Of a stretch of DNA of 64,000 bases, positions 29,617 through 46,279 are shown one piece after another. The stretch lies in the IMG/VR virus record IMGVR_UViG_3300025387_000009. The stretch is one strand, 5' to 3'. Position numbers and translations under genes: made by a program. This DNA comes from a virus (taxonomy: Duplodnaviria; Caudoviricetes). Within the stretch, counting starts at the first letter, position 1; each line of letters begins with the position of its first letter. A model generated the notes under the pieces. That model was not told the DNA's origin. It did no database searches and worked only from the letters and a program-made list of their open reading frames with translations.

Positions 29617-29651
29617 CCCTATTAGTATAGGGCGTTTTAAAATTAAATCAA
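29617..29651 (-). promoter_or_regulatory. sigma70-like promoter TTGATT-N16-TATACT for gp46; -10 box inside hairpin CCCTAT-N4-ATAGGG (29617-29632)
   Basis: Read directly from the sequence. Confidence 0.55.
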
Positions 29652-30554
29652 CTTTAAAATCCAATCTCTAACATTTATGGTTGGATTATAATTTAAATGT
29701 TTTTTTGCCTCTGAAATATCTGCTAATGTATGCTCGGCTTCACCTTCTCTTGCTGGTATGTGAGTTATATCATCACTTATTAGCTTTGCTATATCATTTA
29801 TAGAAATATTTTCACCTGTTCCGATATTATATAAATTTCTACCATCGTGCGTTGGTGTTTCGGCTGCTAAAATATTAACATTTGCTATATCATGAACATG
29901 GACAAAATCTCTGCGTTGTTCACCTGTTCCAACAATGGTTAACGATTCATTATTATTTTTTTGGCGTTTAAAAATACCTATAACTGGAGCATATTGACCA
30001 GTTGTTGGGCTTCTTTCCCCAAAAACATTAAAATATCTAAATACAACAGTTTTTAAACCATACATCTTTGTATACATTTCAACCATTTGTTCTCCTGAAT
30101 ATTTTGTAGCAGAATATGGGTTCAAACAATCAATTGGTTCATTTTCATCAGTGGGAAGTTTACATAAATTACCATAAACAGAAGAAGTGGAAGAATATAT
30201 AAACTTTTCAACATTATAAAGCCTACTATATTGCAACATTTTGGTTGTACCGACTGCATTTATTTGTGTCGCTCTTACTGGGTTAAGAATTGCAGGACCT
30301 ATTCTAGATTCTGCTGCTAAATGAAAAACATATTTTGCATTTTCAAAAATTTCTTTATGCGGAATGGAATCATCGTTAATATCAAACTTAAAATATTTTG
30401 CAGAATCATTAAAATAAAATTCTTCATTTGATTCGGCTGATAAATCATCGATTACGTATACATCATAATTTTTTTCTATAAGTTTATCAACTAAATGACT
30501 ACCAATAAACCCACAACCACCTGTTACTACTGCTTTATTTTTTAAATTGCTCAT
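29643..30554 (-). CDS. NAD-dependent epimerase/dehydratase (SDR, GalE/WcaG-like)
   Basis: TGGCGFIG, HLAA, SSSVYG-like STSSVYG, YSATK (YxxxK), RYFNVFG, RDFVHV. Confidence 0.93.
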   Translation of the reverse strand: MSNLKNKAVVTGGCGFIGSHLVDKLIEKNYDVYVIDDLSAESNEEFYFNDSAKYFKFDINDDSIPHKEIFENAKYVFHLAAESRIGPAILNPVRATQINAVGTTKMLQYSRLYNVEKFIYSSTSSVYGNLCKLPTDENEPIDCLNPYSATKYSGEQMVEMYTKMYGLKTVVFRYFNVFGERSPTTGQYAPVIGIFKRQKNNNESLTIVGTGEQRRDFVHVHDIANVNILAAETPTHDGRNLYNIGTGENISINDIAKLISDDITHIPAREGEAEHTLADISEAKKHLNYNPTINVRDWILKLI

Positions 30555-31266
30555 GTATTAATGTTTTAAATTTTGTTGTGCTCCATCCGTGATCCCTATT
30601 TATGAAATATTCAGTAATATTCAAATCTTTACCTGTATAATCTTTGTCCTTGTAATCATCTCCCATGATTCTAACATGAAATATGAAATTGGATAAAATC
30701 TCATAGAGATCTTTTTCGGTTTCATATGTAATAATTTCATCAATGTATTTGATAGATGATAAAATCTCCTTTCTTTCGTCTACTGTATGAATTGGTTTTA
30801 ATTTTTCTGGTCTTTCTTTCGACGCATCAACATGAAGTAATACCGTAAGATGATCACATTGTTGTTTTGCTTCTTTGAAAGCACAAATATAACCAAAGTG
30901 AACAACATCAAAAGAACCAATTATTACTCCTTTTTTTTGATTTATCGGTTTAAAAAATGATTCACTGTAAATTGCTTTATCATCAACAAATAAATCATAC
31001 GGAGGCTTACCTAAAATTAATTCGTGATATTTTAATCCCCAATTATTAATTTGATTCTTTGTCAGGCTATAATATTTGTCTAAAACCAATGCTAAATTTC
31101 CTTTAAATTCCGTTGTACCCCTAGCAGTATATATTTTAATATAATATCCTTTGTCATAAAGATCATTTACTATGTTAATTCGATCTGTAATAGGAATTGC
31201 ATTGTGATAACCTTTTTTTTCAGTTATACATAAAGTATTATCTAAATCAAAACAATAAATTTGCAT
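30535..31266 (-). CDS. Fusion: HAD phosphatase plus cytidylyltransferase-family nucleotidyltransferase
   Basis: N-terminal DLDNTL, YTARG, KP..DLFVDDK; C-terminal GSFDVVHFGY, MGDDY, RDHGWSTT (TagD/HldE-CT-like). Confidence 0.85.
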   Translation of the reverse strand: MQIYCFDLDNTLCITEKKGYHNAIPITDRINIVNDLYDKGYYIKIYTARGTTEFKGNLALVLDKYYSLTKNQINNWGLKYHELILGKPPYDLFVDDKAIYSESFFKPINQKKGVIIGSFDVVHFGYICAFKEAKQQCDHLTVLLHVDASKERPEKLKPIHTVDERKEILSSIKYIDEIITYETEKDLYEILSNFIFHVRIMGDDYKDKDYTGKDLNITEYFINRDHGWSTTKFKTLIHEQFKK

Positions 31267-32249
31267 TAGTTTGTAAAATTACCTAAAATCATTGACCCAT
31301 GATTATCCATTCCAAAATGTAATCTTGGGAAATTGTTATTTAACATAAATTCATCCAGTTTATCTTGGTTATTTGGACAATATAATAGTAGAAATCCGCC
31401 TCCACCTGCCCCAATTATCTTGCCACCTAACACACCAAAATATTTTTTAGTGTGTTCATAAATCTCATCAACGATAGGGACAGAAATTTTATTAGACAAT
31501 TGTTTTTTAAGTTGCCAATATTCGTCCATTAAAATACCATAACTTTCAAAATCGCCATCAAGTAAATAAGTTATTGTTTTTAAGCCATGCTCTTTAACAA
31601 TTTTTAATATGTCTTCGGAATTACCCTTCAGTTTCTGTTGATCAGAAAGAACTTCGGAAGCATCACGTTTAATGTTTAGATAATAAACACATAAATTAGA
31701 TATAAATTTATTTTTTAAACTTTCGTTTATCTTTAAATCGCTTACGTTTACATTACCATTCATTCCAATATTAAGAATTTTAATTCCACCGTATGCTGCA
31801 ATATACTGATCTTGTTTTCCTACTGGTTCTTTCAATCTGTTAATTTCTATGTCACATGCCTCTTCTGCGAGTATATGAGGCTCTCTATTAAGCTTTTTAT
31901 ATTCTCTTATGCAATTCAACGTTCCAACTAAAAAACTACCAGACGAACCTAGTCCAGTATTAGAAGGAAGATCCGCACAGGAATTTATTTCGCAACTATT
32001 ATCGATCCCATGAATCAAAAGTGCTTCTTTTGCTCTATGATTTTTTAATTCCGAAGCATGGTTAACAATTTCAATTTGGGAATAACGAAGTTTTAATTGC
32101 TTTTCAAAAAAATCTGGTTTGTAAGTCAAGTAAATATACTTGTTAATAGCCATAGAAACGACTAGTCCGCCATGTTTTGAGTAAAAACTGGGTAGGTCTG
32201 TTCCACCGCCACCTAAAGTAATTCTTAAAGGAGTTCTGCTAATGATCAT
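31266..32249 (-). CDS. hddA: D-glycero-D-manno-heptose-7-phosphate kinase (GHMP family)
   Basis: SRTPLRITLGGGGTD, TGLGSSG, PVGKQDQY, KIIGAGGGGF. Confidence 0.85.
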   Translation of the reverse strand: MIISRTPLRITLGGGGTDLPSFYSKHGGLVVSMAINKYIYLTYKPDFFEKQLKLRYSQIEIVNHASELKNHRAKEALLIHGIDNSCEINSCADLPSNTGLGSSGSFLVGTLNCIREYKKLNREPHILAEEACDIEINRLKEPVGKQDQYIAAYGGIKILNIGMNGNVNVSDLKINESLKNKFISNLCVYYLNIKRDASEVLSDQQKLKGNSEDILKIVKEHGLKTITYLLDGDFESYGILMDEYWQLKKQLSNKISVPIVDEIYEHTKKYFGVLGGKIIGAGGGGFLLLYCPNNQDKLDEFMLNNNFPRLHFGMDNHGSMILGNFTN

Positions 32250-32977
32250 ATGTTCAAATTTGATAATTTTGCATCATCAAAGAACATTTTAACAGTTTCT
32301 AAAGAAAAGTCACTTAAATTTTTATCTTTAAGCTTTAATTTTGGTAAAATATCAGGAGTTACTGTAATAATATCGCAACCAGAACGTTCTGCTTCGTATA
32401 CATTATACACTGAACGTGTACTCGCCCACAATGTTTCTATTTTTGACTTCCTATCTTTTAAAAATTGCGTGGTTGCAGATGTTAATTCGATTGGATTTCT
32501 ACCAGTATCAGAAATTCTACCAGCAAATATTGAAATTATAAGAGGATGAAAAGTTCCTATAAGGTTTTTGATGATGCTTCCAACCTGTACACCATCAAAA
32601 ACAGCCGTAACGTTAATTTTTATACCTTTATCATTCATTTTGGTAATCAAATCGACAGTAGAAACACCTTTAGTGTTGGTTATGGGAACTTTCACGTAAA
32701 TATTATCACCATATTCTGCAATTTTTTGGATTTGATATTCCATTTCATCCAATTCATCGGCAAAAATCTCAAAGGAAAAAGGTAAATCTGAAATCTTACT
32801 AGTTATTTCTTTTATAAATGGAACATATTCGGTAATACCAGCCTTTTTCATGAGGCTAGGATTAGTTGTAAAACCTGTTACTGTTTTATTATTTTCATAT
32901 ATGTCAAATATCTCTTTGACATTTGATGTATCAGCGAATATTTTAATGCTCATATTATTTTGTAAAGTAATTAACAA
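32246..32977 (-). CDS. tal: Transaldolase (short TalC/Fsa type)
   Basis: FADT, GFTTNPSL, YVKVP (Schiff-base Lys), NVTAVF, FAGRISD, LWAS. Confidence 0.9.
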   Translation of the reverse strand: MLITLQNNMSIKIFADTSNVKEIFDIYENNKTVTGFTTNPSLMKKAGITEYVPFIKEITSKISDLPFSFEIFADELDEMEYQIQKIAEYGDNIYVKVPITNTKGVSTVDLITKMNDKGIKINVTAVFDGVQVGSIIKNLIGTFHPLIISIFAGRISDTGRNPIELTSATTQFLKDRKSKIETLWASTRSVYNVYEAERSGCDIITVTPDILPKLKLKDKNLSDFSLETVKMFFDDAKLSNLNI

Positions 32978-33521
32978 CCAAATGTAAAATTATACCTTGC
33001 CATTCTTCTGCATGGGCAGTGACTCTTTCGGGTTTTATAGGCGGAATTAGGATACAAGCATTTGAAAGCTGTTTAGCAACACCACCATCTTTACTCACAA
33101 CAGAAAGTATATAGCTTTTTGTTTTCTTTGCTAATTTCATTGCGTTAACAAGATTTTTAGATGTTGTTTCAGAACCACCGCCAACGGAAAAAATAATAAT
33201 TGCATCCTTTGATGAAAGTTTACTACCCTTTAACCAATTTGCATAAGAATCTTCCCAAGATTCATCGTTTATTCTTGCGGTAAGTTCAGAAACATTATCA
33301 GTAACTGCGTAAGTTTCTATTCCAAGAATCTTTCTAAAATCATTTACGGCATGGCTGGCATTTGCAGCACTTCCACCAACACCTAAAACAAAAAGTCTAC
33401 CTTTTGTAGATTTAATTTTTTTAATTATTTCAATAAATTTAACAATTGAATCCGTTTCAATGTTATCTATAATTGATATTATCTCACCAAAATATGTTGT
33501 AATGTAATTTTTAATTTTCAT
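32955..33521 (-). CDS. gmhA: Phosphoheptose (sedoheptulose-7-P) isomerase, SIS domain
   Basis: LGVGGSAANASHAVND, LTARIND, FSVGG, HAEEWQGIILH. Confidence 0.88.
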   Translation of the reverse strand: MKIKNYITTYFGEIISIIDNIETDSIVKFIEIIKKIKSTKGRLFVLGVGGSAANASHAVNDFRKILGIETYAVTDNVSELTARINDESWEDSYANWLKGSKLSSKDAIIIFSVGGGSETTSKNLVNAMKLAKKTKSYILSVVSKDGGVAKQLSNACILIPPIKPERVTAHAEEWQGIILHLVVNYFTK

Positions 33522-34150: not shown

Positions 34151-34151
34151 T

Positions 34152-34871
34152 TTACCCCTTTAAAAAAAGCTCATCGATATCATCATATTCCATTAAATCT
34201 ACTAATTTAGATTTTTTTTCTGGGTGTGTAAAATTATCATTGTATTGATAAGGAGGAGTAAAATCCATTTCAAAATTTTCTTCCCATAAAAAGGCAATTT
34301 CCGTTTGTAAATCTCCGAATTTATTATGATACGCCTGACTAGAAGCAAAATTAAAATTTACATGCTCCATTAATCCCATTTTAGGGTATCCACAAAATAC
34401 TTTATTTTTAATAGTGTAAATCCACCTATGGTGATGATACCCCAAATAATTTCCTTCCCATCTCTTCGTATCCATGTATTTAGTTGGAACTGCAATCAGT
34501 CCTGCGTCCGCTATTTTGAATAAATTTAAAATAACCTGAATAGGTGCATTAAGATCTTCTAATGTATGAGTGCATACCACGAAATCAAACTTACCATTTT
34601 TCTCGACGTATTTAAAAATAGGAGTCCACGTATCATTTAATTCCATATCTCCACCAAATTTAATAACATTGTCATTTTTTAATTTTTCTGGTTGAAAATC
34701 TAAAATATGAGTTGTGTATTCTGGTATTCTTAATTTGGCAGCACCACCAATATCTATTAATGTAATATCTCTCCCCTTTTTTTGTTTTAATTCATTTAAA
34801 TAGTCATAAACTTCTTTATCCTTGGTGTGTTCATGTTCACCATTCCAACTGGATTTTATATATTTTATCAT
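34152..34871 (-). CDS. Class I SAM-methyltransferase-like protein
   Basis: LIDIGG, FDFVVCTHTLED. Confidence 0.65.
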   Translation of the reverse strand: MIKYIKSSWNGEHEHTKDKEVYDYLNELKQKKGRDITLIDIGGAAKLRIPEYTTHILDFQPEKLKNDNVIKFGGDMELNDTWTPIFKYVEKNGKFDFVVCTHTLEDLNAPIQVILNLFKIADAGLIAVPTKYMDTKRWEGNYLGYHHHRWIYTIKNKVFCGYPKMGLMEHVNFNFASSQAYHNKFGDLQTEIAFLWEENFEMDFTPPYQYNDNFTHPEKKSKLVDLMEYDDIDELFLKG

Positions 34872-34874
34872 ATT

Positions 34875-35549
34875 TTATATTAATTTAAATAAACCTTGAC
34901 TGTAGCTTTCTTTTTGATGTAGCAATGGCTGATAATCAAAACCAGTATCCAATAAAAATTCAGCAAAAGCTTTAATCTCATGATTTCGGTAATCATCATA
35001 ATCATTGATTTCATCAAACAATAATACCGAGCCTTTTTTGAATCTAGGAGTCAATTCTGTTAAAACTGTTTTAGCGGATGAATATAAGTCACCATCAATA
35101 TGAACGAAAGCAACATCACCTTCAAACTTTTTTAAGAAAAGTGGTAAAGAATCCTCGAAAAGACCCTTTATAAGTTTTACGTTTTCGGGCCATGGCTTCC
35201 AATTTTGTGGAAGGCTACTATCAAACATAGAATGATTTTCGCCAACAATATAACCTGGTGGTACATTACCACCTAAACTATAACAATTTTTTGGATTATT
35301 TGAATCCCAATACTCAGGTAATCCTTCAAAGCAATCAAAGCCATATATTTCCTTTGGTGCTTTTCTGGAAAATTGTTCAATACTTCTTCCAGTAAATACA
35401 CCAAATTCTAACCATAATCCATCAAGTTCAACGTATTCGGTGCATTTTAAATGAAACGTTTCATGATAATCATGAATGCAATCCGTTACAATTGCTTCGG
35501 TTCTGAGTCTATGTTCTATTTCGTCTATTTTTTCTTCTACTGTTTTCAT
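34875..35549 (-). CDS. TylF/MycF-family sugar O-methyltransferase
   Basis: LEFGVFTG, GFDCFEGLP, KGLFEDSL, VHIDGDLYSS, FDE. Confidence 0.88.
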   Translation of the reverse strand: MKTVEEKIDEIEHRLRTEAIVTDCIHDYHETFHLKCTEYVELDGLWLEFGVFTGRSIEQFSRKAPKEIYGFDCFEGLPEYWDSNNPKNCYSLGGNVPPGYIVGENHSMFDSSLPQNWKPWPENVKLIKGLFEDSLPLFLKKFEGDVAFVHIDGDLYSSAKTVLTELTPRFKKGSVLLFDEINDYDDYRNHEIKAFAEFLLDTGFDYQPLLHQKESYSQGLFKLI

Positions 35550-35553: not shown

Positions 35554-36645
35554 TTATTTAGAGAGGTTATCGTATAAGTCTATAATAGATTGTTCAACTT
35601 TTCTATAATCATATTTTTGATAATATCTAGTTAGAGTGTTTTCGCTTTTTTCGACATAGTAATCTTTATTATCTCTTAACAATGATAATTCTGATGCATA
35701 TTCTTCAACTGAATATGCCACCTTTCCACATCCTTCTATTTGCTCTAAATGTCCCATATTTAACGCAGGATGACTTACAACAGGTTTACCGTGATACATT
35801 GCTTCTATTATTGAAGCAGAACAAACCTCGCCGTCTGATCTTGCATGAGCAAAAACATCAATTCCTTCTAAATAATTGTGAATGTTTTCAACAGAACTTG
35901 TAAATTTTACAAAATAAACATTTTTAAGCTGTAATTCTCTAGCTAAATTTATATGTTGTTCACTTCCACCCAGAATAATAAAACAAGTATTGTCATTCTG
36001 CACTAATGAATATGCTTGCAAAGAAACAGGTGAAAATATATCACCTCTGGTTGCTTGGTGAAAGCCGTATACAAATTTATCCTCACTTATACCTAATAAT
36101 TCTCTAATATTTGATTTCTTTTTTTCTGGTACTTTTACAATAGATGGGATTATTTCGGCTTTTGATATATTACCACCATTAGCTCCCCATTTATCAGCTT
36201 GCCATTTGCACAATAAAATAGCTTTCTTAATGTTTGGTTTATCTTCTCCTGTAAAACTATGAATGCTATCAATGATTGAACATTGGTTAATTAAATTAAA
36301 TGGATATTCGGGATAACCACATCTACCAGTTTGCACAAAATCATAATTGGATTCTTTAAAAATATCCCAAAAATTAGTACCAACCCATTCATACGGTTCA
36401 ACGTTACCGATTTTATGATCAACATGAACTTGGATTGTTTTTATACCATTGTTTTCTACGAATTCTTTTCTTTTGAGGTCGTTATCAGGATGTTCAAAAC
36501 TAGAATACCAAAATGGTGCGGCATTAGTGTAAAAATAATCAACTTGATAACGATCTTTAGGTAATAAACAAGCTATAGTCTGGAGATATTTTTCAATTCC
36601 ACCGGAAGCTAATCCTGCAAATTTAATAAATGCTATTTTTTTCAT
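35554..36645 (-). CDS. Glycosyltransferase family 4 (GT-B)
   Basis: GGIEK; DVFAHARSDGEVCSASIIEAMYHGKPVV (Ex7E). Confidence 0.88.
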   Translation of the reverse strand: MKKIAFIKFAGLASGGIEKYLQTIACLLPKDRYQVDYFYTNAAPFWYSSFEHPDNDLKRKEFVENNGIKTIQVHVDHKIGNVEPYEWVGTNFWDIFKESNYDFVQTGRCGYPEYPFNLINQCSIIDSIHSFTGEDKPNIKKAILLCKWQADKWGANGGNISKAEIIPSIVKVPEKKKSNIRELLGISEDKFVYGFHQATRGDIFSPVSLQAYSLVQNDNTCFIILGGSEQHINLARELQLKNVYFVKFTSSVENIHNYLEGIDVFAHARSDGEVCSASIIEAMYHGKPVVSHPALNMGHLEQIEGCGKVAYSVEEYASELSLLRDNKDYYVEKSENTLTRYYQKYDYRKVEQSIIDLYDNLSK

Positions 36646-37358
36646 TATCTTTGTCTTTGTCCCGAATCTAATGTTGATGTATATAATCCGGTTCTAGAAC
36701 CTTGTGTCGCTATAGATGGATACCACCAATAGGTTTTAGCATCAAATTTATATAACTGATAAGCAATCTCCCAATCGGAAACTAATTGGAATGGAACAGC
36801 CGATTCATATATTTTAGATGCTATTTGCGGTTTTAAAAGATAAGCTTCTGCACAATTTGTTGCAGGATGATTCATTAAAAATGAATTCTCGCTTACCTTT
36901 TTACTTTCCATAAGTTTATGACTTTGAAAATTGACACCACATCCTTCGCCTAAGAATATCGCATCCCAATCATTTGGTGTTTCTTGAAAATATTTCTTAT
37001 AAAAACTGTTAAAATTACTATTAAACAGTACATCATCTTCTAAAATAAGACCAAAATTTTCACATTCAATTGAAAGTTTTTTAATTGCAATCAAGTGTTT
37101 GATTGTACATGATATTTCAGGCATATTTAATACTCTGAATTTATGAATATTAGAATCCCATAATGGTTTAATTTTATTTGCAAATTTTTCTTCATCCGCA
37201 AGATAAAATTGATTTAAAACATCTACATTTAAATCTTCTTTATCGTATTCTGTTATAAATTCATAAGGAATTTTACAATTTTCTAAAAAAGGAATTAGAT
37301 TGGAGTATCTATCATTTAATTTAGTGTAATGAACTATGTAAATTTTATCAGGTTTCAT
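36645..37358 (-). CDS. Glycosyltransferase family 25
   Basis: KIYIVH...R, EISCTIKH, LILEDD, AEAYLL. Confidence 0.8.
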   Translation of the reverse strand: MKPDKIYIVHYTKLNDRYSNLIPFLENCKIPYEFITEYDKEDLNVDVLNQFYLADEEKFANKIKPLWDSNIHKFRVLNMPEISCTIKHLIAIKKLSIECENFGLILEDDVLFNSNFNSFYKKYFQETPNDWDAIFLGEGCGVNFQSHKLMESKKVSENSFLMNHPATNCAEAYLLKPQIASKIYESAVPFQLVSDWEIAYQLYKFDAKTYWWYPSIATQGSRTGLYTSTLDSGQRQR

Positions 37359-38257
37359 TTAATTTGATTAGAAATCAAGGTTATAACGGATTCAGGTTGA
37401 ACGAAATCGGGTATCTTATTATCAATAAACCAAGGTTGGCGCAATATATTTTTATATTTTTCAATATCTGAATCTATCTCTTTTATTTTTTCTATGACTT
37501 CTTCATCTGAAGAATAATCATGGCAATTTATAAATGATTCGGGATTAAAATCCTTATTAACAGATTTAGACCCCCAATAAATTGGAACGCACATTGCAAA
37601 CATAGAATGTATTATCTTTTCGGTGCAATATCCAAGAGATTCGCAATTTTCCATTGCAATATTAAATTTACATTGTTTTAACCAATCAATTTTATATTTT
37701 TGATCTCCTCTTGCCCAATTGCCTTTAGAATCAAGCACTAAATGCCCCGTATTATTATATAAAGGTCCGACACAATCTACTTTCTTATAGTTGTTTAGCT
37801 TTGGAACGAACTCAACTCTTTTACCTTTAGGTTGTGTTGCCATAAATCCACAAAATTTAGTCTTATTAATTTGCTTTGGCTTATTTAAAAAATCTTCTAA
37901 TGAAACCAAATTTGCTTGATCTCTATCATCATTATATGGGCGATTAAACCAATTTAAATATAATGCCCATAAAGGTAAACGATACTCTCTAGGATCATCG
38001 GAATGACGAAAAGTATAAGCTAAATGGCATTCATTCCAATTTGGTGCTACGTCCTCACCCGTGTAAAAAACCTTTAGACAATTATTATAGCGATCTCTTT
38101 CCCTTGCATTACCATAATCAACAGAAAAAAATAAAATATCTGGATTTACTTCATCAATTTCTACATCATATTTTGTTTTTAATAGATTGTAAAAATAATT
38201 GTCATCTTTAATAAGATTGGGCCAAAAGTCTACAAAGTTTAATTTTAATTTTCTCAT
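37355..38257 (-). CDS. Alpha-1,3/4-fucosyltransferase-like (GT10)
   Basis: KFNIAMEN...GYCTEKI...CVPIYWG alpha-3-FucT motif. Confidence 0.88.
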   Translation of the reverse strand: MRKLKLNFVDFWPNLIKDDNYFYNLLKTKYDVEIDEVNPDILFFSVDYGNARERDRYNNCLKVFYTGEDVAPNWNECHLAYTFRHSDDPREYRLPLWALYLNWFNRPYNDDRDQANLVSLEDFLNKPKQINKTKFCGFMATQPKGKRVEFVPKLNNYKKVDCVGPLYNNTGHLVLDSKGNWARGDQKYKIDWLKQCKFNIAMENCESLGYCTEKIIHSMFAMCVPIYWGSKSVNKDFNPESFINCHDYSSDEEVIEKIKEIDSDIEKYKNILRQPWFIDNKIPDFVQPESVITLISNQIK

Positions 38258-39288
38258 TTTAAAAAGGTTTCGATGATTTTCTCCATGTTATATTCTTGTT
38301 TCCAGTTTGGAAAATGTCTTTTAAATTTTCTAGTATCAGAAATCCACCATATATGATCTCCTATTCTATTTTCGTCTTTAATAGTATAGTTTAATTTCTT
38401 ATTTATCATATTTTCTATTAAATTGATAGCTTCTATGACAGAACAATTTGAATATGTTCCTCCTCCAATGTTATAAACTTCACCATTTGCTCTAGGTGAT
38501 TCAAAATATGCATCAAAGGCAGATATTAAATCCGAAGAATGGATATTATCTCTTACTTGCTTACCTTTGTACCCAAAAATTGTATATGGAATATCATTTA
38601 CGCAACATTTTACCAAATATGAAAGAAATCCATGAAGTTCAACACCGGAATGTTTTTGTCCAGTTAAGCAACCACCTCTAAATACAACGGTTTTTAAATT
38701 AAAATATTTTCCATATTCTTGAACCATTATATCAGCAGCCACTTTACTAGCACCAAATACACTATGTAAACAATGATCTATTGATACCCATTCATCAAAT
38801 CCATTTTCATGATCGGGTAAAAGAGGAGTGAATCTAGTTTCATCTTCGTGTAATGCAATTCTATTTGGTGTATCGCCATAAACCTTGTTAGTTGATGTGA
38901 AAATAAATACTGCATCAGGTGAATACAATCTATAAGACTCTAAAAGGTTAATAGTACCGACTGCATTTACATTAAAATCGGTTAATGGTTCTTTACATGC
39001 CCAATCATGAGAAGGTTGAGCCGCCGTATGAATGATAAGGTCAAAATTACCCTGCTGTATAAAAATATTTTCAACTTCTTCTCGGTTAACGATATTAGAA
39101 TTATAGTGAGTATAGTTTTTATGTTTTTTTAATTCGTTAAGTCTCCATTCAACTGATCCACCTTTACCAAAAAAATACTCTCTAAAATTATTATCGGTTC
39201 CCACAACCTGATAACCTTTATTGCAATAATATTCAACGGCTTCGGAGCCAATTAATCCACCAGAACCAGTAATTAAAACTTTTTTCAT
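38254..39288 (-). CDS. CDP-paratose 2-epimerase (CDP-tyvelose epimerase)-like SDR
   Basis: GSGGLIG, AAQPSHDW, STNKVYG, FGASK, FRGGCLTG, GKQVRD, RIGDH. Confidence 0.8.
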   Translation of the reverse strand: MKKVLITGSGGLIGSEAVEYYCNKGYQVVGTDNNFREYFFGKGGSVEWRLNELKKHKNYTHYNSNIVNREEVENIFIQQGNFDLIIHTAAQPSHDWACKEPLTDFNVNAVGTINLLESYRLYSPDAVFIFTSTNKVYGDTPNRIALHEDETRFTPLLPDHENGFDEWVSIDHCLHSVFGASKVAADIMVQEYGKYFNLKTVVFRGGCLTGQKHSGVELHGFLSYLVKCCVNDIPYTIFGYKGKQVRDNIHSSDLISAFDAYFESPRANGEVYNIGGGTYSNCSVIEAINLIENMINKKLNYTIKDENRIGDHIWWISDTRKFKRHFPNWKQEYNMEKIIETFLK

Positions 39289-39291: not shown

Positions 39292-40056
39292 TTAATTTAT
39301 CCAGTTCCTTACTTTATTCCAATCCTGACCACCAGCAAAATGTCTTATCATAACATTATCAATTGATACTCTGTTTATATTAAAACTACCACCTGTTTCA
39401 CCAATCCATTCGGTTACATTAAACCCAGTATCAAATATATGAACATTTTCATTTAATTCATCAATTGAATACACCACATCTTCGTTTATTTCACTATGAA
39501 ACCCATTATTTGGATATTCCCAAAAAGATTTATCAGAGTGTCTTTTAATACCTGCTAAACTATACCAACTCGCTTGCTCTCTAAACTCATGCCAAAAGCT
39601 AGATTGAATTTGAAATCTTTCGTGTATTGAGATTTTATTATTTAATTTATTAAATCTATCATCTGATAAAATATTATTAATAAGCTTTTTTGACCATTCA
39701 TTAACTTTTATACTATACCAGCCCATACAATGGGTGTTACCGGAATCTATGGCGTATGAAAATGATTTTGGTGTTTCAATTGAGACCGAATCATTAACAA
39801 AATACATATCTGCATCAATGTGTGCAAGCATATCGTCATCTACCAGAGTTCCCTTATCAATTAAATTCTTTACAATTGAAAATTTCCACCATGTTGGATT
39901 ACCCCTATACAATTCAAGGGGTGCATCATTACCTATTACAACATATTTAAACCCATGTTTATCACAATATGCTTTATTTCTTGGTGAAATTATCTCATCA
40001 AAAATTTGTTGTCGGTAATCGTTATAACGTGCTATTACAAATAATATTTTTTTCAT
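39292..40056 (-). CDS. Glycosyltransferase, GT34 (MNN10/GMA12)-like
   Basis: RNKAYCDKHGFKY, TWWKF, HIDADMY (DxD). Confidence 0.65.
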   Translation of the reverse strand: MKKILFVIARYNDYRQQIFDEIISPRNKAYCDKHGFKYVVIGNDAPLELYRGNPTWWKFSIVKNLIDKGTLVDDDMLAHIDADMYFVNDSVSIETPKSFSYAIDSGNTHCMGWYSIKVNEWSKKLINNILSDDRFNKLNNKISIHERFQIQSSFWHEFREQASWYSLAGIKRHSDKSFWEYPNNGFHSEINEDVVYSIDELNENVHIFDTGFNVTEWIGETGGSFNINRVSIDNVMIRHFAGGQDWNKVRNWIN

Positions 40057-40934
40057 TTCTGCAATGTTTTTAAGATATTAACACAAGTTCCTTCTAAAGT
40101 AAAATACTTTGGGTAAATTTCTTTTATTTTTTCAAGCATGAAATTATATCTTTCATCGGATATTGATTTTAATATACCATCTAAATTTTCAATATCATCA
40201 AAATCAACTAATACACATATATCATGCCAGTTTATATCATCGATAAAAGGTAAAAATGGTTTTTGGTAATAAATATAAACCGGAACTGAACCCAATTGCA
40301 TTGATTCATATAGTCTAAAACTGGTTGCACCATAACCCCTTGGACATAAGGTAAATCTACTACGAGCAGTAGTAGTTAAAAATAAATCTATCTTTTCTTT
40401 TTCTACATTAGAAGACCAACTTTTAGTGTTTAATACATATTCACACTTTCCATTTAAAACTTCTAACATTTTATTTCTAATATCGTGTGATATTTTCCCC
40501 CAAAATGTATCCCCATATGTTACGCTACCTACAAAACTACAGAATATATCTTTATCAAGAATTGGTTTGTTTGGTATTTCGCTGCAAATTAAGGGAATTG
40601 GTATTGTATTTGGTACATTCCCACCAGCGGAAAAATTTATTGTATTTATAGGTAGCTTTAAAGATGGCGCATCATCATGTTGTGATACTGTAAAATATTT
40701 TTTTGATCCATCTAATTCCTTTAGATCTTTTTGTAAATCAGGAATCATAGTTAATGCTTTTATGTAGATATCAGTCCACATGATAGGTATATACTTTCTA
40801 TCTAACTTTTCAAATTCATCATAATTTTTTAAATAAAAATCTAAAAAGTATTGCTCCAAATATTTTCCTTGATGATAAGGCGGATATTGTGGATATTCTG
40901 CCTTTATACAGTATTTTTTAAATTGATCTAGCAT
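40053..40934 (-). CDS. Exostosin-family glycosyltransferase (GT47)
   Basis: CSFVG, FTLCPRGYGATSFRLYESMQLGSVPVYI. Confidence 0.85.
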   Translation of the reverse strand: MLDQFKKYCIKAEYPQYPPYHQGKYLEQYFLDFYLKNYDEFEKLDRKYIPIMWTDIYIKALTMIPDLQKDLKELDGSKKYFTVSQHDDAPSLKLPINTINFSAGGNVPNTIPIPLICSEIPNKPILDKDIFCSFVGSVTYGDTFWGKISHDIRNKMLEVLNGKCEYVLNTKSWSSNVEKEKIDLFLTTTARSRFTLCPRGYGATSFRLYESMQLGSVPVYIYYQKPFLPFIDDINWHDICVLVDFDDIENLDGILKSISDERYNFMLEKIKEIYPKYFTLEGTCVNILKTLQK

Positions 40935-41592
40935 CGTATTTCTCCTTTACTAAATTTAACATTTTTATTTTATTTTTAAAAGGCGTTGCCCAATTAGCAT
41001 GATGAATTACAATATCGCTAGGTATATCAAAAGGCTCTTCGCCTGTCCAAGTTTTACCTGTTCTAGCTGCTATTTCACCATAAGTCCAGTATTTTACTGG
41101 TAGCATTTTCCAATTAAATGCAATCTTTTGATAAATTGGAAAATTTCCCAATAAATGATTAAAACATACTTGTTCTTCTGGAAAATGATGAAGATTACCT
41201 TTAACAGTCTGAAGAAATGCACGGGTTTTGGGCGTAGATCTCATCATAAAAAAACCAGTGTTGACACCTCCACCAAAATCATTTTGAAAAATTGCATCAG
41301 CATCACCAAGATAATTTAATATTTCATCATGAAAAGGTTTAAAAAACTGAATATCTGGATCAGAAAACATAAAACATTTTCCATTTTCCGTTTCATAAGC
41401 GGCATCAATAAAACATTGAACCTTATACATCATTGTATCTCTCCAACCCTCACTATGAAATTCTGAACTAGGACAAACTTGTGGTTTAAATTTAACAACA
41501 AGTTCTAAATTTGGATCAAAAGGAAAACTTTTTATAAAATAATCCTTGAACATCCCATAATGAGATTCTGTAAAAACTGTATATAGTTTCAT
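40918..41592 (-). CDS. Nucleotide-diphospho-sugar transferase (GT77-like)
   Basis: FSDPDIQF, FQND, VNTGFFMMRS, EQVCFN, HHAN. Confidence 0.75.
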   Translation of the reverse strand: MKLYTVFTESHYGMFKDYFIKSFPFDPNLELVVKFKPQVCPSSEFHSEGWRDTMMYKVQCFIDAAYETENGKCFMFSDPDIQFFKPFHDEILNYLGDADAIFQNDFGGGVNTGFFMMRSTPKTRAFLQTVKGNLHHFPEEQVCFNHLLGNFPIYQKIAFNWKMLPVKYWTYGEIAARTGKTWTGEEPFDIPSDIVIHHANWATPFKNKIKMLNLVKEKYDARSI

Positions 41593-42251
41593 GTTCTGTA
41601 ATTACCCTTTGAATCTCTTATATCAACAAAAGCACTTTTATATTTTCCTGTTTCGGAACCTTGTTTTAAAACTAAACCCGACCAAAGAACTCTTATTTTC
41701 ATACGTGGAATAAAATAATTTAAAATTCTATCTATTGCATGACAATTTATTTTAGCAGCTATCAATAAACTTTCAACACACCGAAGACTAACAATATAAG
41801 CTCCTGTGCATCTGGTAATATATGAGGGATCATAATATAAAAGTGTGGGAGGTTTTTTATTTTGAACTTCCATACCACAACATGAACTCAAAAATGCAAC
41901 ATCACCATCTAATTTTTCAAATTCAAAAGCAGCTTGTTCCAAATATAAATTAAGATTGATATTTTGAAAATCAATGTCATCTTCTAATATAAGAACGTGT
42001 TCATATTTTCTTTTTAATTGTTGCTCATAGCAATATATGTGCGATTGATTTACGCAGAGTAAACGTGGATTAATATGGAAAGCATTTTTAATTTTTTTAA
42101 TGCTTTCGGGTTTATCATATTGATCAACCCATTCAACTAAATCAGTTAATCCGAATTCTTCTAATTTCTTTTCCATATATTCCCTTCTATCTGTTAAGGG
42201 TTTCCAATGTATAATATAGATTTTACTATAAAATTCTCTTATACTTTTCAT
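41589..42251 (-). CDS. Glycosyltransferase family 25
   Basis: KIYIIH...DRREYM, VNQSH, VLILEDD, GAYIVS, AID. Confidence 0.8.
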   Translation of the reverse strand: MKSIREFYSKIYIIHWKPLTDRREYMEKKLEEFGLTDLVEWVDQYDKPESIKKIKNAFHINPRLLCVNQSHIYCYEQQLKRKYEHVLILEDDIDFQNINLNLYLEQAAFEFEKLDGDVAFLSSCCGMEVQNKKPPTLLYYDPSYITRCTGAYIVSLRCVESLLIAAKINCHAIDRILNYFIPRMKIRVLWSGLVLKQGSETGKYKSAFVDIRDSKGNYRT

Positions 42252-43018
42252 ATTTTTAAAAATTCCATTTCTTTTTCATTCTCATCAGATAAAGGATATA
42301 AAAATTGACCGTATGGTAATCGTTTTACAAGATATGAATATATAAATTCATGCCATTTTTTATGGTAAGGCGTACTTTCCCATAATTTGGAATTATGAAC
42401 TGCTTCAGGAGAAAATTCATTCCATTTTAACTCGTGTTTTTCATGACAAATATAAACTTCTTTATTTCCTAAAAATGAATTGCTTCTATTGTATAACTCT
42501 ATTGCAAACGCAACATCCCATAAATGTTCAGCATAGATATAGTCTTGAAAATAATTTCTATTTTGTATCCACCAATCCTTTTTAACCGCCCATGCATCAA
42601 ATCCAGCAATCTCTATTCTAAATGGTATAATATTATTTAAAGAATCAATTTTATAACAATCATGTCGAGAAAAAGAATAAGATTCATATTCACCCTTTGA
42701 TATTAATTTTAATAATCTATCGGTTAATAAAATGTCACTATTTAAAAATAAAAAGTAATCGCAATCAACAGTAGATAAAGCATCAAAAAAATCTTTAGCT
42801 ATTGGTTTATCAGAATTTGACCCTTTAATTATATCTTTTGCTTTTCTTTTTAGTACTGGCAAATGATTAAATCCTAAAGTGTAATTTTTTTCATTTTCAA
42901 ATGTTATATTATAAAGAGAAACATTTGAATGTTTTGCCACAAGCCGATTTAATACTTCTATACATTGATCTTGTCTAGTGTAATATCCAAAAATATTAAT
43001 TCCTATCGCTATTTTCAT
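42248..43018 (-). CDS. GT-A-fold glycosyltransferase-like protein
   Basis: YFLFLNSDIL, AGFDAW, HLWD, CHEKH; lies within the GT operon. Confidence 0.5.
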   Translation of the reverse strand: MKIAIGINIFGYYTRQDQCIEVLNRLVAKHSNVSLYNITFENEKNYTLGFNHLPVLKRKAKDIIKGSNSDKPIAKDFFDALSTVDCDYFLFLNSDILLTDRLLKLISKGEYESYSFSRHDCYKIDSLNNIIPFRIEIAGFDAWAVKKDWWIQNRNYFQDYIYAEHLWDVAFAIELYNRSNSFLGNKEVYICHEKHELKWNEFSPEAVHNSKLWESTPYHKKWHEFIYSYLVKRLPYGQFLYPLSDENEKEMEFLKI

Positions 43019-43925
43019 ATATTTTACTGATTTCTTTTATAAACCCCAGTGGCGATATGCTATTTTCATATATCTCTCTTATTTTAATCTGTAAATCAAT
43101 ATATTGATTATCCGATATGGAATTCCAAAAATTATTAACCGCTTCGTTTATTTCATCTATTGAATTAACAAATATCGATATATTTTTCCAATCTATTTTA
43201 TCTTCGAATGGGAAGATCATATCAGAATTAACTATCAATGGTATTTTACCTAAACTCATTGTCTCGTATAATCGATATGAAAAATTACCAACGCCTTTAC
43301 AGCATAATATTATATCACTATCATACATGTTATCTATATATTGTTTTCTTAAAGTTGGATTATGAACGGAACCACCCCAAAATCCTTCCTTTCTAACTAA
43401 AAAATTAGTAATAACGTTTTCATTTATATTTAAAATATCCATTGCTTGTTGTCTATATTCATTAGATAAAGCACCACAAAAACCAATTGTTGGTTTTTTG
43501 GTTTTTATTTTTGGTTGAAAATATTTTGTATTATTAAAATCATCCGACCATGCTGGCAAAGCATATTCATTTTGTTTTCTTTTTGATCTATAGAAAGAAG
43601 TTCTGTAGACATCAATGCAATTTGGTAAGTTTGTCGGTGTTGCATTATCATCGTTATATAATGCAATAACTTTTTTATTATATTTTTCTGCTAAATTTAT
43701 ATATTCACCTATATTTTGATTTAATTTAGCGTGATATACTATAACATCGCAGTCATCTATTGATGTATATTGAATATATTTTCTGGCTTCTTTAATCCAT
43801 TTTCTTACATCAACAAAATCTAAATTTTTTTCTATTAATTCAAGACTAAGAAAAGGAAATAGCAAAATATGCTCTTGAACTACTTCATTTGTTGGAAACA
43901 TGTGTGGGTTTGACCAAATTTTCAT
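42996..43925 (-). CDS. Exostosin-family glycosyltransferase (GT47)
   Basis: IGFCGA, LCCKGVGNFSYRLYETMSLGKIPLI. Confidence 0.82.
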   Translation of the reverse strand: MKIWSNPHMFPTNEVVQEHILLFPFLSLELIEKNLDFVDVRKWIKEARKYIQYTSIDDCDVIVYHAKLNQNIGEYINLAEKYNKKVIALYNDDNATPTNLPNCIDVYRTSFYRSKRKQNEYALPAWSDDFNNTKYFQPKIKTKKPTIGFCGALSNEYRQQAMDILNINENVITNFLVRKEGFWGGSVHNPTLRKQYIDNMYDSDIILCCKGVGNFSYRLYETMSLGKIPLIVNSDMIFPFEDKIDWKNISIFVNSIDEINEAVNNFWNSISDNQYIDLQIKIREIYENSISPLGFIKEISKIYENSDRN

Positions 43926-44701
43926 GATTTAATATTTTTTAATTTTTTAATAACATCTTCTTGTGGGATATCTGGTATTTGATTGACCATTATACCATGT
44001 TTTTTGATAAAAAGCTGCCATTGTTCTTGTATTCTTTGTTCTCTTGATCCATCTGGACGATCTGCTTGTAAACGACTTACCGCAACAGGATTATTTTCAA
44101 TATATAAGTCCGAATCGGCTATATCAGCAAAATACCAAAAGGGTGCTGCATAATCTTGTTGGGATTCTCTATATGCCATGTCAATATCAAAAGGATCTCT
44201 AAATTGAGTATCATATAAACCAACTTTTTCATAGCATGATTTATGATGATATGTAAATTCGTTGCACATATTTTTATAAAAGGATATTTTAACATTGTTT
44301 TTATAATTAACTGTTAAACGAGGTGTTCTATTACCGATTGGACCAGATTCCCATGCCATGCTTGTATAGCAGAGATATTTTAAACCAGTTTCTTTAGATG
44401 CTTTAATATATTCATCAAATATATCAGGTCTTTTTATTATCATATCGTCTTCAATTATGAAGATGTGTTCGCAATTCCTGTTTAAAAGAAAATTTATAGC
44501 ATCATTTCGACAAATTGCTGGATAGCAGTTAGTGTTATGTTGCACCCAATGGCATGCATAGTTCTCCTTGTAATGATTACCTCCATTGATGACAACTAAT
44601 TCATCAATTTTGGCAAGAGGAAGTGATTCATAAAGAGTTTTAAAGTAATCTTCTGAATTATATGTAACTATTCCTACTCCGATTTTTTCTTTTTTTTCCA
44701 T
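43922..44701 (-). CDS. Glycosyltransferase family 2 (paralog 1)
   Basis: IGVGIVTYN, CRNDAINFL..RNCEHIFIIEDD, VGLYD. Confidence 0.82.
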   Translation of the reverse strand: MEKKEKIGVGIVTYNSEDYFKTLYESLPLAKIDELVVINGGNHYKENYACHWVQHNTNCYPAICRNDAINFLLNRNCEHIFIIEDDMIIKRPDIFDEYIKASKETGLKYLCYTSMAWESGPIGNRTPRLTVNYKNNVKISFYKNMCNEFTYHHKSCYEKVGLYDTQFRDPFDIDMAYRESQQDYAAPFWYFADIADSDLYIENNPVAVSRLQADRPDGSREQRIQEQWQLFIKKHGIMVNQIPDIPQEDVIKKLKNIKS

Positions 44702-45498
44702 ATTTCTTGTAATGATTTAACACAATCTTGTTCAGTGTAAGGTTTTTCAGCGGGTCCGTAACCACCAATAACACTAAATCCTTGTTTTTTAATAAATAAA
44801 TCTAAACCATTTTTAAATGTTTGTTGAAAATCGGATTCAGTTCTAATTTTACTCTGCTGATGATCTGGGACAATATCCTTTAACATCTTATCCGAACCAT
44901 GAACATCAGCAAACCAACGAAATGGAGGATGATAACCTGCTTTAATGGCTCTGTAGGTGTGATCTACATGCTCCATAGCATTATAATAGTCTTCATCAAT
45001 TAAACCAATCTCATCTAAAACGGATATATGAAAATAACTAAATGCACCAAGAAGATTTGGGTATAAATCTATCTTTGTGTCATCTGGATAATTTACGGTT
45101 TTTCTTATTATTGGATTTCCGTAACCATCTCGGTTATGATTACCATGTAATCCATAATTTAAATGTTTAACACCAGTAACATTTGCGGTTTTAATATATT
45201 CTCTGAATACAAATACGTCTTCGATCTCAATATCATCTTCCATTAAGAAGATATGCTCACAATTTCTTTCCATTAAGAATTTTAAAGCTGCGTTTTTAGC
45301 TTTACCAACACCTTGTCTACCAATTGTATCTATTAAATTTATTGGTTGGTACTTTAATTTATTAGTACCATCATTTACCGTTACCGTCTCAAAATCTGTA
45401 TATATTTGAAGTGCTTTACTAAGACTTTCACTAGCCTTAATATAAAAATCTTCCCTGTCGCATGTAATTATACCGACACCAATTTTATTTTTTTGCAT
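44674..45498 (-). CDS. Glycosyltransferase family 2 (paralog 2)
   Basis: IGVGIITCDR, AKNAALKFL..RNCEHIFLMEDD, IGLIDEDY, EHVDH. Confidence 0.85.
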   Translation of the reverse strand: MQKNKIGVGIITCDREDFYIKASESLSKALQIYTDFETVTVNDGTNKLKYQPINLIDTIGRQGVGKAKNAALKFLMERNCEHIFLMEDDIEIEDVFVFREYIKTANVTGVKHLNYGLHGNHNRDGYGNPIIRKTVNYPDDTKIDLYPNLLGAFSYFHISVLDEIGLIDEDYYNAMEHVDHTYRAIKAGYHPPFRWFADVHGSDKMLKDIVPDHQQSKIRTESDFQQTFKNGLDLFIKKQGFSVIGGYGPAEKPYTEQDCVKSLQEIWKKKKKSE

Positions 45499-46279
45499 AA
45501 TTGGTTTGAATTACTTCCATTGATTTGAGTAATTCCTCTTGAGATACATGTGGTGGATCATTTTGCGTAGGCAGATACTTGTGTTCATTCAAGAAATGTG
45601 CATAACTTAATTGAACGTCTCTTGATTGATCTGGCATATCCTTAAATCCAAGTTTATTGATATTACCGATACCGCTTTCTAACCAATCACTAGGTATTGT
45701 TGGATGATAGTTGTTTGGTGGGTAAGCATTTTTGTTTCTGACCTTTGTGACATAATCTAAAACATCTAATTGTAAACTATTGAAGTATCTTTCATCGAAA
45801 TAGCCAAATGTTTTTACTATTCCTGAAAACAAAAATAAAAACTCTGTATTTAAATGTTTGGAAAGGTTAAGTGTTACACCCTTTTCATCATCTTCAAGAG
45901 GAATATTATCGGTTGATGCTCCTGTAATAATCCACGTACCAAAGGTGTCAGCAAGCTTAAGAGTCTTTTCAAAAATTTCTGGATTTTTGATAACTTGATT
46001 GGAATGAATAAGAAAATAATACTTTAATCCCTTTAATCTCATTTGAGAAATTAACCAATTTCTCATTGTTGCTAACTGTACAGACGTTGTATATTTTTTA
46101 TATTCTTGTACAACACCATATGGATCTTTATTATTGTTATTTGAAACAACAAATACTTGATTTGGTCTAGGATCACCATCTCCACGGTATATAAAATCTT
46201 GAGGTACAGATTTTAAACAATTATTTAAATCTTCTTGAGTATAAAGGTCAAGAATGCCTATTCCTATTTCGTTGTTCAT
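45485..46279 (-). CDS. Degenerate GT2-like protein (paralog 3, lacks DxD)
   Basis: IGIGIL, MRNWLI, FLIHSN in place of FxxEDD, FGYFDERY. Confidence 0.6.
   Translation of the reverse strand: MNNEIGIGILDLYTQEDLNNCLKSVPQDFIYRGDGDPRPNQVFVVSNNNNKDPYGVVQEYKKYTTSVQLATMRNWLISQMRLKGLKYYFLIHSNQVIKNPEIFEKTLKLADTFGTWIITGASTDNIPLEDDEKGVTLNLSKHLNTEFLFLFSGIVKTFGYFDERYFNSLQLDVLDYVTKVRNKNAYPPNNYHPTIPSDWLESGIGNINKLGFKDMPDQSRDVQLSYAHFLNEHKYLPTQNDPPHVSQEELLKSMEVIQTNYAKK

Follow-up and report, generated by a model that had tools for sequence, protein, structure and literature searches.

The window analysed here, a 64,000-nucleotide stretch of an uncultured T4-like aquatic phage (IMG/VR record IMGVR_UViG_3300025387_000009), carries a 16.6-kb block of sugar genes at 29643-46279, between gp47 and gp46. 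What would a phage assemble with 12 glycosyltransferase-like genes, three methyltransferases, two short-chain dehydrogenase/reductase (SDR) enzymes and a five-gene heptose-activation module, to which one of the SDR enzymes is tied? We tentatively read this island as a phage-borne, all-soluble glycan assembly line, with virion proteins as its most likely acceptor. A comparison of related loci supports its organization into a fixed core and an exchangeable module of 11 genes.

Annotations of sugar clusters in large marine phages go back to 2005; the usual label is lipopolysaccharide (LPS) genes, and none of the clusters has a tested function. As homologues of the genes described here occur in the cultured phages S-SKS1 and SynMITS9220M01, the choice between a virion coat, the host surface and DNA is open to bench experiments. 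Were the virion the target, lakes and oceans would contain phage particles with variable glycan coats, with consequences for host range, grazing, adsorption and the stability of the particles.

An island within a conserved T4-type gene block

The island consists of 22 close-packed open reading frames (ORFs), all on the minus strand (Table 1). They represent 21 genes, because a single FkbM methyltransferase is spread over two ORFs, with its N-terminal part at 33959-34150 and its C-terminal part at 33511-33981. Eight of the junctions are ATGA overlaps (-4), two are overlaps of 1 nt, eight are longer overlaps and four are gaps of 1-4 nt; gaps of 31 nt are confined to two sites, one before gp47 and one before gp46. 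This layout confirms a sequence-only reading of the stretch, which had proposed a 16.6-kb island of 21 genes on one strand, many of them overlapping.

Upstream of gp47, a sigma factor resembling gp55 and a helicase resembling UvsW are encoded. The identical order uvsW-gp55-gp47-gp46 is found in P-SSM2, where a single 93-aa ORF separates gp47 from gp46, in agreement with the earlier statement that the two are near-adjacent in T4-like phages. The 16.6 kb thus constitute an insertion into a conserved T4-type block. The gp47 protein is 50-81% identical to its counterparts at 25 IMG/VR loci and 32% identical to that of P-SSM2, and gp46 is 28% identical to cyanophage gp46. Besides uvsW and gp55, the 64-kb window encodes DNA polymerase B, gp32, UvsX/RecA, a DnaB-like helicase and the large terminase subunit; the DNA polymerase of this phage lineage is ~31% identical to the cyano- and pelagimyophage polymerases. 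In a megablast search, none of 50,697 phage records was matched by the 21-kb region.

The junctions were checked through independent contigs. The exact terminal SDR gene was recovered in seven contigs, each assembled from a different sample (ENA, JGI and Logan). All seven are 100% identical to the window, and six of them run on into gp46. At the other end, the first island gene (GT2-like paralogue A) directly follows gp47 in 22 of the 22 IMG/VR relatives whose contig reaches past gp47. With independent, fully identical contigs at the gp46 junction and related contigs at the gp47 junction, a chimeric assembly was rejected, and both junctions of the sequence-only reading are real. A recent foreign origin of the island was rejected as well, the GC content showing no step at either junction.

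A fixed core and an exchangeable module

Across relatives, the gp47-gp46 interval varies in length and content around a constant GT2-like triplet. It spans 16.6 kb in the window, 10.95 kb in the closest relative (L004), 7.5 kb in L007, 6.7 kb in L020 and 6.2 kb in L025, and in the relatives it always holds transferases and methyltransferases (GT2, GT7 fusions, GT4-type, GT47, GT10, GT25, FkbM, Methyltransf_23/24, NTP_transferase). The triplet, and likewise a further transferase gene of 437 aa after gp46, are present wherever the relatives' contigs reach. Such conservation in the lineage is more in keeping with an integral function of the phage than with a dispensable accessory role.

The left half of the island (46279-38254) comprises 10 genes: the GT2-like triplet, a GT47, an unnamed GT-A, a GT25, a GT77-type, another GT47 and a GT34-like transferase, and SDR 2. 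It is common to the closest relatives at 59-96% identity, with the second GT47 inserted in the window only: this gene (GT47 b) is not found at the equivalent position in the closest relatives, and L002, L004 and L005 give only paralogous matches of 30-33% to the other GT47 gene. In relatives, identities amount to 34-74% for paralogue B and 62-82% for GT25 b, and in L002, L004 and L005 to 85-87% for the GT34-like gene. The most conserved gene of the island is SDR 2, with 96% identity to L004:17747-18778 amid neighbours of 36-87%, which suggests either a recent exchange or a very strong constraint on this enzyme.

The right half (38257-29643) comprises 11 genes: GT10, GT25 and GT4-type transferases, the three methyltransferases, a GmhA-like isomerase, a transaldolase, an HddA-like kinase, a HAD-nucleotidyltransferase fusion and SDR 1. 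In L004, the corresponding region encodes a GT10 of 36% and a GT25 of 47% identity, an intact FkbM methyltransferase and a 320-aa ORF of no known function, and the heptose genes are absent. The GT10 gene is 87% identical in L005 but only 36% in L004, within a background of ~80-96%, which argues for allele replacement. Between relatives, whole genes in the gap have been gained or lost, and alleles have been replaced. The proposal that the gap is a swappable cassette is therefore upheld by relatives with differing gene sets over 6.2-16.6 kb, and can be refined to a fixed core plus an exchangeable module.

The right half also recurs as a block in an unrelated contig, L043, in which nine genes are 40-62% identical: GT10 (45%), GT25 (40%), GT4-type (45%), GmhA (62%), transaldolase, kinase, fusion (51%), SDR and TylF (51%). 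The FkbM and class-I methyltransferases of L043 match by family only, and its gp47-like gene is far off. Similar islands are found in the contigs L068-L070 (39-305 kb), all three with a TylF-family gene, and the module also occurs in S-SKS1 and SynMITS9220M01. In L043 and L070, family-level counterparts of the class-I methyltransferase at 34152-34871 lie within the heptose module or next to it.

In another T4-like lineage, a cytidylyltransferase-like sugar nucleotidyltransferase is situated between gp55 and gp47 (L061:4730-8535), so the uvsW-gp55-gp47-gp46 block accepts sugar genes at more than one point.

Glycosyltransferase-like genes

The count of 12 glycosyltransferase-like genes in the sequence-only reading stands, with graded support. 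Seven are assigned by Pfam: two GT47, two GT25, Nucleotid_trans (GT77-type), GT10 and Glycos_transf_1 (GT4-type). The five island ORFs that have no Pfam match are the three GT2-like paralogues and the genes at 42248-43018 and 39292-40056. Fold or homology places the GT2-like trio and the unnamed GT-A, and language-model features place the GT34-like gene, whose matches are viral GT34 (GMA12/MNN10) clusters, some of them from Nucleocytoviricota.

For paralogue A, a sequence search of the PDB found nothing, tblastn against phage records gave no match, and fold comparison alone was informative. Its Atlas model superimposes on viral GT2 clusters with TM scores of 0.83-0.85, and its AlphaFold2 (AF2) model (pLDDT 88) retrieves GnT-I, POMGnT1, TarP and ppGalNAcT2 in Foldseek (E ~1e-7). 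Paralogues B and C were assigned as GT2-like by their homology to A, all three being mutually paralogous; tblastn with paralogue C yielded only weak matches (~25% identity), to transferases of enterobacterial phages, lambdoid ones among them. In some relatives paralogue C is fused to a GT7 (beta4-GalT-like) domain, as in L007:12565-14061 (Glyco_tranf_2_3 with Glyco_transf_7N/7C). Paralogue A carries HSN, NSN or SSN at the acidic DxD/EDD site in 12 of 12 aligned sequences (HSN in the window gene, aligned with 11 orthologues), and this DxD-less protein may be a non-catalytic partner of B and C.

The unnamed GT-A at 42248-43018 belongs to a family with at least 102 environmental homologue clusters, none of which has a Pfam domain, and in which N93 and D95 are invariant. 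Its profile found nothing in a sequence search of the PDB; by structure it matches TarP, TarS, RmlT and SpsA (Foldseek, E 3e-7). The best of these is TarP, a prophage-encoded wall-teichoic-acid transferase. Among the Pfam-assigned genes, GT47 a is 46% identical both to a gene of the cultured Synechococcus phage S-SKS1 and to one of a 735-kb uncultured phage record, and GT25 a is 26% identical to its S-SKS1 counterpart.

The 437-aa gene after gp46, beyond the island limits, has no Pfam match; annotated transferases of Streptomyces phages and of phAPEC8-like phages share ~24% identity with it. It directly follows gp46 in L007, L020 and L025 at 69-72% identity, whereas gp46 itself is 44-49% identical; in L004 the same place is taken by a 447-aa ORF. 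Yet another glycosyltransferase outside the island is encoded at 57980-58651 on the plus strand, among small early genes; an identical contig lists it in its gene table as PF13712 (Glyco_tranf_2_5).

A putative heptose pathway and further sugar-modifying enzymes

The module in the right half resembles a pathway for a nucleoside diphosphate (NDP)-activated heptose, and we infer this role from its best-matching families. The heptose pathway of the sequence-only reading finds support in the NCBIfam families gmhA, transaldolase and HddA and in the fusion protein, but all scores lie under the curated cut-offs. For the GmhA-like protein, gmhA reaches 43.5 bits (cut-off 209); for the kinase, HddA is best with 130 bits (cut-off 600), ahead of fucokinase with 95. 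The kinase has more than 120 close environmental homologue clusters, of which the named ones are heptose-7-phosphate kinases according to JGI, and it is 28-32% identical to the kinases of Cr30 and SynMITS9220M01. The fusion protein begins with MQIYCFDLDNTLC; TIGR01689 spans its residues 4-105, and residues 113-235 score 61 bits with TagD and 53 bits with rfaE domain II. It is 44% identical over its full length to a SynMITS9220M01 protein. The true start of the transaldolase is likely the ATG 8 codons downstream of the listed one, the L033 product being called at 235 aa.

In the proposed route, the transaldolase would provide sedoheptulose-7-phosphate, which GmhA, the kinase and both domains of the fusion protein (phosphatase and nucleotidyltransferase) would convert to NDP-heptose, to be tailored by an SDR. 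The candidate for this last step is SDR 1, which probably acts as an NDP-heptose epimerase or dehydratase: it scores 164 bits with GalE and 127 bits with heptose_epim, both under the cut-off, and is 52-55% identical to the end genes of the S-SKS1 and SynMITS9220M01 heptose modules, the latter gene carrying the annotation heptose 6-epimerase. The best NCBIfam matches of SDR 2 are GalE and dTDP-glucose dehydratase, again both under the cut-off, and not GMD. The earlier assignment of two SDR epimerases is borne out by PF01370 matches in both extended SDRs.

Of the three methyltransferases proposed previously, TylF and FkbM are firmly assigned by their profiles, while the third, a Methyltransf_23 match under the cut-off, is weak. 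The FkbM gene is interrupted where its reading frame shifts by 1 nt, precisely at an A9 run (T9 on the plus strand, 33962-33970), which is one of just two homopolymer runs of at least 9 in the 64-kb window. A shift by one base joins the frames and aligns them with the intact 239-aa gene of L004, and an independent 96-kb ENA contig shows the identical split. The frameshift may be fixed; alternatively, the site may be prone to slippage and so yield variable methylation.

Solubility and expression

All island proteins are predicted to be soluble, none reaching a Kyte-Doolittle value of 1.6 over 19 residues, in line with the previous claim that transmembrane segments are absent. Throughout the 64-kb window, every ORF has at most two hydrophobic segments and none is polytopic. 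Pfam scans of the window ORFs likewise agree with the sequence-only reading in finding no flippase, polymerase (Wzy), ABC exporter, phospho-glycosyltransferase or ligase.

The early promoter that had been suggested at gp47 is represented by one plausible sigma70-like site, TTGAAA-16 nt-TATTAT, whose -35 hexamer shares bases with the gp55-like gene's stop codon; in the promoter and terminator scan as a whole, however, sites were no commoner than in shuffled controls. As such generic scans do not rise above chance, the timing of expression is read from this one site. The T4 late motif TATAAATA is rarer than expected by chance, and its sole copy in the island does not precede a gene. The island would accordingly be placed among early transcripts, presumably together with gp47.

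What does the island glycosylate?

We favour virion proteins because the core transferases are fixed in the lineage, all enzymes appear to be soluble, and chloroviruses and mycobacteriophages provide precedents. The transferases would extend a growing chain sugar by sugar in the cytoplasm, and the methyltransferases would O-methylate it. The acceptor would be the phage's own virion proteins, for example Ser/Asn-rich fibres, by analogy to chloroviruses and mycobacteriophages, and swapping of the variable genes would alter the glycan between close relatives. That this glycan is branched, as had been proposed, is not inferable from sequence.

A fibre-like ORF on the plus strand of the window (60788-64000, running off its end) constitutes a candidate acceptor by its composition. 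Over at least 1070 aa it contains 19.6% Ser, 17.1% Asn and less than 4% charged residues, with 44 N-x-S/T motifs and tandem modules of the form SANNASVY...SANWxSISFLQ; it has no PHROG match. Its presence adds to the case for virion proteins, as does the frequent location of pelagimyophage 'LPS' genes among fibre genes (63 of 162 among tail-fibre genes; PMC7029224). A more specific scenario, which we regard as possible if more speculative, is a host-independent line of the chlorovirus style: the fixed GT-A trio, including its non-catalytic DxD-less partner, would prime virion proteins, exchangeable modules would add methylated, heptose-containing sugars, and the coat would vary like an O-antigen.

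Several points weigh against virion proteins as acceptor or against the proposed pathway. No sequence feature identifies the acceptor, and the island is found in the early replication/recombination region rather than with the late structural genes. Two assignments, GT34-like and Methyltransf_23, are weak, the heptose enzymes other than the transaldolase fall far below their NCBIfam cut-offs, and the island has no recognisable heptosyltransferase (GT9); profile searches of the relatives' incomplete contigs found neither a GT9 nor an HddA-like kinase. Early expression in itself is no argument against a virion acceptor, since the transferase genes of chloroviruses are early genes. Two further objections are at the same time arguments for a remodelling of the host envelope: the GT25, GT4, GT10, heptose and FkbM families are typical of bacterial LPS, lipooligosaccharide (LOS) and O-antigen loci, and the published readings of homologous cyanophage and pelagiphage clusters all favour host-surface modification (PMC1079782; PMC7824862, section 3.4.10; PMC7029224; PMC12801897).

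In such a remodelling, which we consider rather unlikely, the soluble transferases would act at the inner membrane face on lipid A-core or undecaprenyl-linked intermediates, and the MsbA/Lpt or O-antigen machinery of the host would display a methylated heptose glycan that blocks adsorption by competitors, or adsorption of progeny to debris and to cells already infected. Core-LPS transferases are soluble or peripheral, need no membrane segment and depend on host export. The absence of membrane segments is thus compatible with this scenario and the absence of export genes does not exclude it, so the step taken in the sequence-only reading, from missing export genes to a cytoplasmic acceptor, is not compelling. 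The O-antigen-like polymorphism of the locus, a sigma70-like early promoter suited to action on a living host and the structural match of the unnamed GT-A to TarP point in the same direction. However, an initiating phospho-glycosyltransferase, flippase, polymerase, ligase and exporter were not found in the 64-kb window, 12-13 transferases would make a new glycan rather than modify one, and the export enzymes of the host are substrate-selective. Moreover, surface receptors that already exist would persist through a single lytic cycle, and the GT2-like triplet and the 437-aa transferase belong to the core of the lineage instead of occurring sporadically.

Very improbable, in our view, is a sugar hypermodification of DNA, in which some of the transferases would glycosylate a modified base as a protection against restriction, like the alpha- and beta-glucosyltransferases of T4. 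In T4, alpha-gt adjoins gene 47. In the window, the island, the 437-aa gene and the PF13712 gene at 57980-58651 all place transferases amid genes for the replisome and for recombination, and expression is likely early. Heptose-containing glycans are also known on 5-hydroxymethylcytosine (5hmC), to which phage clusters add up to three sugars (bioRxiv 10.1101/2023.12.21.572611). Yet known DNA glycans do not exceed three sugars, as against 12 transferases and three methyltransferases here. Neither PF00303 (ThyA-type) nor PF12851 (TET/JBP) was found in the contigs of three relatives, which are 53-73% complete, the PF12851 search having matched no control genome either, and the window has a ThyX and no ThyA-type gene among the ORFs scanned. 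Because the prerequisite, a ThyA-type or TET-type enzyme, was not found in the incomplete contigs of the relatives and the window has ThyX, we disfavour DNA, which the sequence-only reading had named as a possible acceptor beside virion proteins.

A different cytoplasmic product is improbable to a lesser degree: a methylated oligo- or polysaccharide, either free or attached to lipid, or glycosylated host proteins or small molecules, could serve as a decoy, osmolyte, carbon sink or inhibitor during infection. The island does not name its acceptor, methyltransferases of the TylF and FkbM types also act on small-molecule sugars, and the module occurs in unrelated genomic contexts in L043 and L068-L070, all of which would suit such a product. 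However, we found no phage precedent for it, and the number and diversity of the transferases are better suited to a defined heteroglycan on a macromolecule.

Relation to known sugar-gene clusters

By its gene content, the island belongs to a known class of sugar-gene clusters in large aquatic T4-like and jumbo phages. Iyer et al. described a polymorphic cluster type with at least eight transferase families and one to four paralogous NAD-dependent epimerase/dehydratases (PMC7824862). P-SSM2 has 24 such sugar genes (PMC1079782), and S-SCSM2R has 13 glycosyltransferases among 22 genes, a number described as possibly unsurpassed among marine phages (PMC12801897). Given these numbers and the homologous ~15-kb island of S-SKS1, the claim that the present island is far larger than described phage glycosyltransferase sets does not hold.

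The island shares with the clusters of P-SSM2, S-SCSM1 and S-SCSM2R a large aquatic T4-like genome, several epimerase/dehydratases, a sugar kinase and a HIGH-superfamily nucleotidyltransferase, transferases of at least eight families (here GT2-like, unnamed GT-A, GT47, GT25, GT77-type, GT34-like, GT10 and GT4-type) and polymorphism between related phages. It differs from them in its contiguous block of 21 genes between gp47 and gp46 and in the lineage-fixed GT2-like triplet. Furthermore, its kinase is of the GHMP type, whereas Iyer et al. named the PfkB type.

The island of S-SKS1 (NC_020851, ~33.3-48.5 kb) is likewise one co-directional block, with homologues of the GT47 (46% identity), GT10 (35%), GT25 (26-29%) and heptose-linked SDR (55%) genes and with an annotated phosphoheptose isomerase, transaldolase and epimerases. 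However, S-SKS1 belongs to the genus Llyrvirus, its island adjoins tRNA, hli and ferredoxin genes, the GT2-like triplet is missing and the genes are mostly annotated as hypothetical. In SynMITS9220M01, consecutive genes encode the kinase, GmhA, the HAD-nucleotidyltransferase fusion (44%) and the SDR (52%), and the Caulobacter phage Cr30 has a kinase, isomerase, transferase and epimerase; in both, the transaldolase is not inside the module and the surrounding transferases are others. With the bacterial pathway to GDP-D-glycero-alpha-D-manno-heptose (GmhA, HddA, GmhB, HddC) the module has in common, by its best-scoring families and with scores under the curated cut-offs, a GmhA-type isomerase, an HddA-type GHMP kinase and a HAD phosphatase step, but in place of an HddC-type NTP_transferase it has a phosphatase-fused, cytidylyltransferase-like enzyme (HldE domain II/TagD-like).

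PBCV-1 encodes sugar methyltransferase activity and nucleotide-sugar enzymes, and its glycan is O-methylated. Its eight putative transferases, which include the exostosin-like A075L and are mostly predicted to be cytoplasmic (PMC9614988), resemble those of the island in being virus-encoded and mostly soluble, a resemblance of design and not a demonstrated homology. PBCV-1 differs in being a eukaryotic virus with transferases scattered in the genome, and in that the structure and acceptor of its glycan are solved. The mycobacteriophages with glycosylated virions have only ~2-3 transferases, are not known to encode a nucleotide-sugar pathway and infect actinobacteria. The likeness to them, by analogy and not by a demonstrated sequence relation, lies in phage-encoded transferases acting in the cytoplasm, where they are described, in the papers citing this work, as modifying capsid and tail or tail-tube proteins (Freeman et al. 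2023, Cell Host Microbe, cited in PMC12801897 and PMC12619734). New here are the phage lineage, with a DNA polymerase that shares ~31% identity with that of any cultured phage, the insertion site, the fixed GT2-like triplet with its DxD-less member and the mobile 11-gene methylated-heptose module.

Feature coordinates and neighbouring genes

Table 1. Coordinates and assignments of the island genes and their flanks, from high to low position in the window
Feature	Position	Strand	Basis or remark
Plausible sigma70-like promoter, TTGAAA-16 nt-TATTAT	47342..47369	-	Read from sequence; ends 7 nt before gp47 start codon
gp47 (Mre11/SbcD-type nuclease subunit), upstream flank	46276..47334	-	Metallophos_2
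GT2-like paralogue A, GT-A fold	45485..46279	-	Predicted structure; directly after gp47
GT2-like paralogue B, EDD motif intact	44674..45498	-	~30% identity to paralogue C
GT2-like paralogue C, EDD motif intact	43922..44701	-	Homology to A
GT47 (exostosin-like) transferase b	42996..43925	-	Exostosin_GT47 E 1e-9, RXYLT1_C
GT-A-fold transferase, unnamed widespread phage family, NSD replacing DxD	42248..43018	-	AF2 pLDDT 96
GT25 transferase b	41589..42251	-	Glyco_transf_25 E 5.7e-7
GT77-type nucleotide-diphospho-sugar transferase	40918..41592	-	Nucleotid_trans PF03407 E 1.3e-12
GT47 (exostosin-like) transferase a	40053..40934	-	Exostosin_GT47 E 1.5e-15
GT34-like transferase, weakest assignment	39292..40056	-	Language-model features only, Atlas score 0.97
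Extended SDR 2, nucleotide-sugar epimerase/dehydratase	38254..39288	-	Epimerase PF01370 E 1e-34
GT10 fucosyltransferase-like, first gene of right-hand module	37355..38257	-	FucT_N E 1.6e-20, Glyco_transf_10 E 1.3e-18
GT25 transferase a	36645..37358	-	Glyco_transf_25 E 2.8e-12
GT4-type (GT-B) transferase	35554..36645	-	Glycos_transf_1 E 1.5e-10
TylF-type sugar O-methyltransferase	34875..35549	-	TylF E 8e-11, Methyltransf_24
Probable class-I methyltransferase, weak	34152..34871	-	Methyltransf_23 E 1e-4, 22.5 bits vs 27-bit cut-off
FkbM-family methyltransferase, split ORFs of 63 aa + 156 aa	33511..34150	-	PF05050 positions 1-42 and 38-172 on the two ORFs
GmhA-like sedoheptulose-7-phosphate isomerase	32955..33521	-	SIS_2; best NCBIfam gmhA
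Transaldolase	32246..32977	-	TAL_FSA E 2e-35; TIGR02134 268 bits vs cut-off 282
HddA-like GHMP kinase (D-glycero-D-manno-heptose-7-phosphate kinase)	31266..32249	-	GHMP_kinases_N + _C
HAD phosphatase-nucleotidyltransferase fusion	30535..31266	-	N-terminal DxDxT, GmhB-like role; C-terminal CTP_transf_like
Extended SDR 1, tied to heptose module	29643..30554	-	Epimerase PF01370 E 3e-55
gp46 (Rad50/SbcC-type subunit), downstream flank	27803..29611	-	SMC_N + AAA_23
Further glycosyltransferase-like gene, 437 aa, directly after gp46, beyond island limits	26460..27773	-	phrog_7162 'glycosyltransferase' E 3e-20

A homing-endonuclease-like gene (NUMOD3) at 25612-26472 is situated on the opposite (plus) strand between the polymerase and the 437-aa transferase. 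The ThyX gene (Thy1, E 5e-49), at 22370-23011 on the minus strand, adjoins the DNA polymerase gene. Among the contigs with similar islands, L070 (JGI 3300008267, 179 kb) has an island that additionally encodes a UDP-galactopyranose mutase (GLF), NTP_transferases and a formyltransferase, and a RuBisCO large-subunit-like gene (PF00016; L070:20120-20981) lies a few kb from its heptose/methyltransferase genes.

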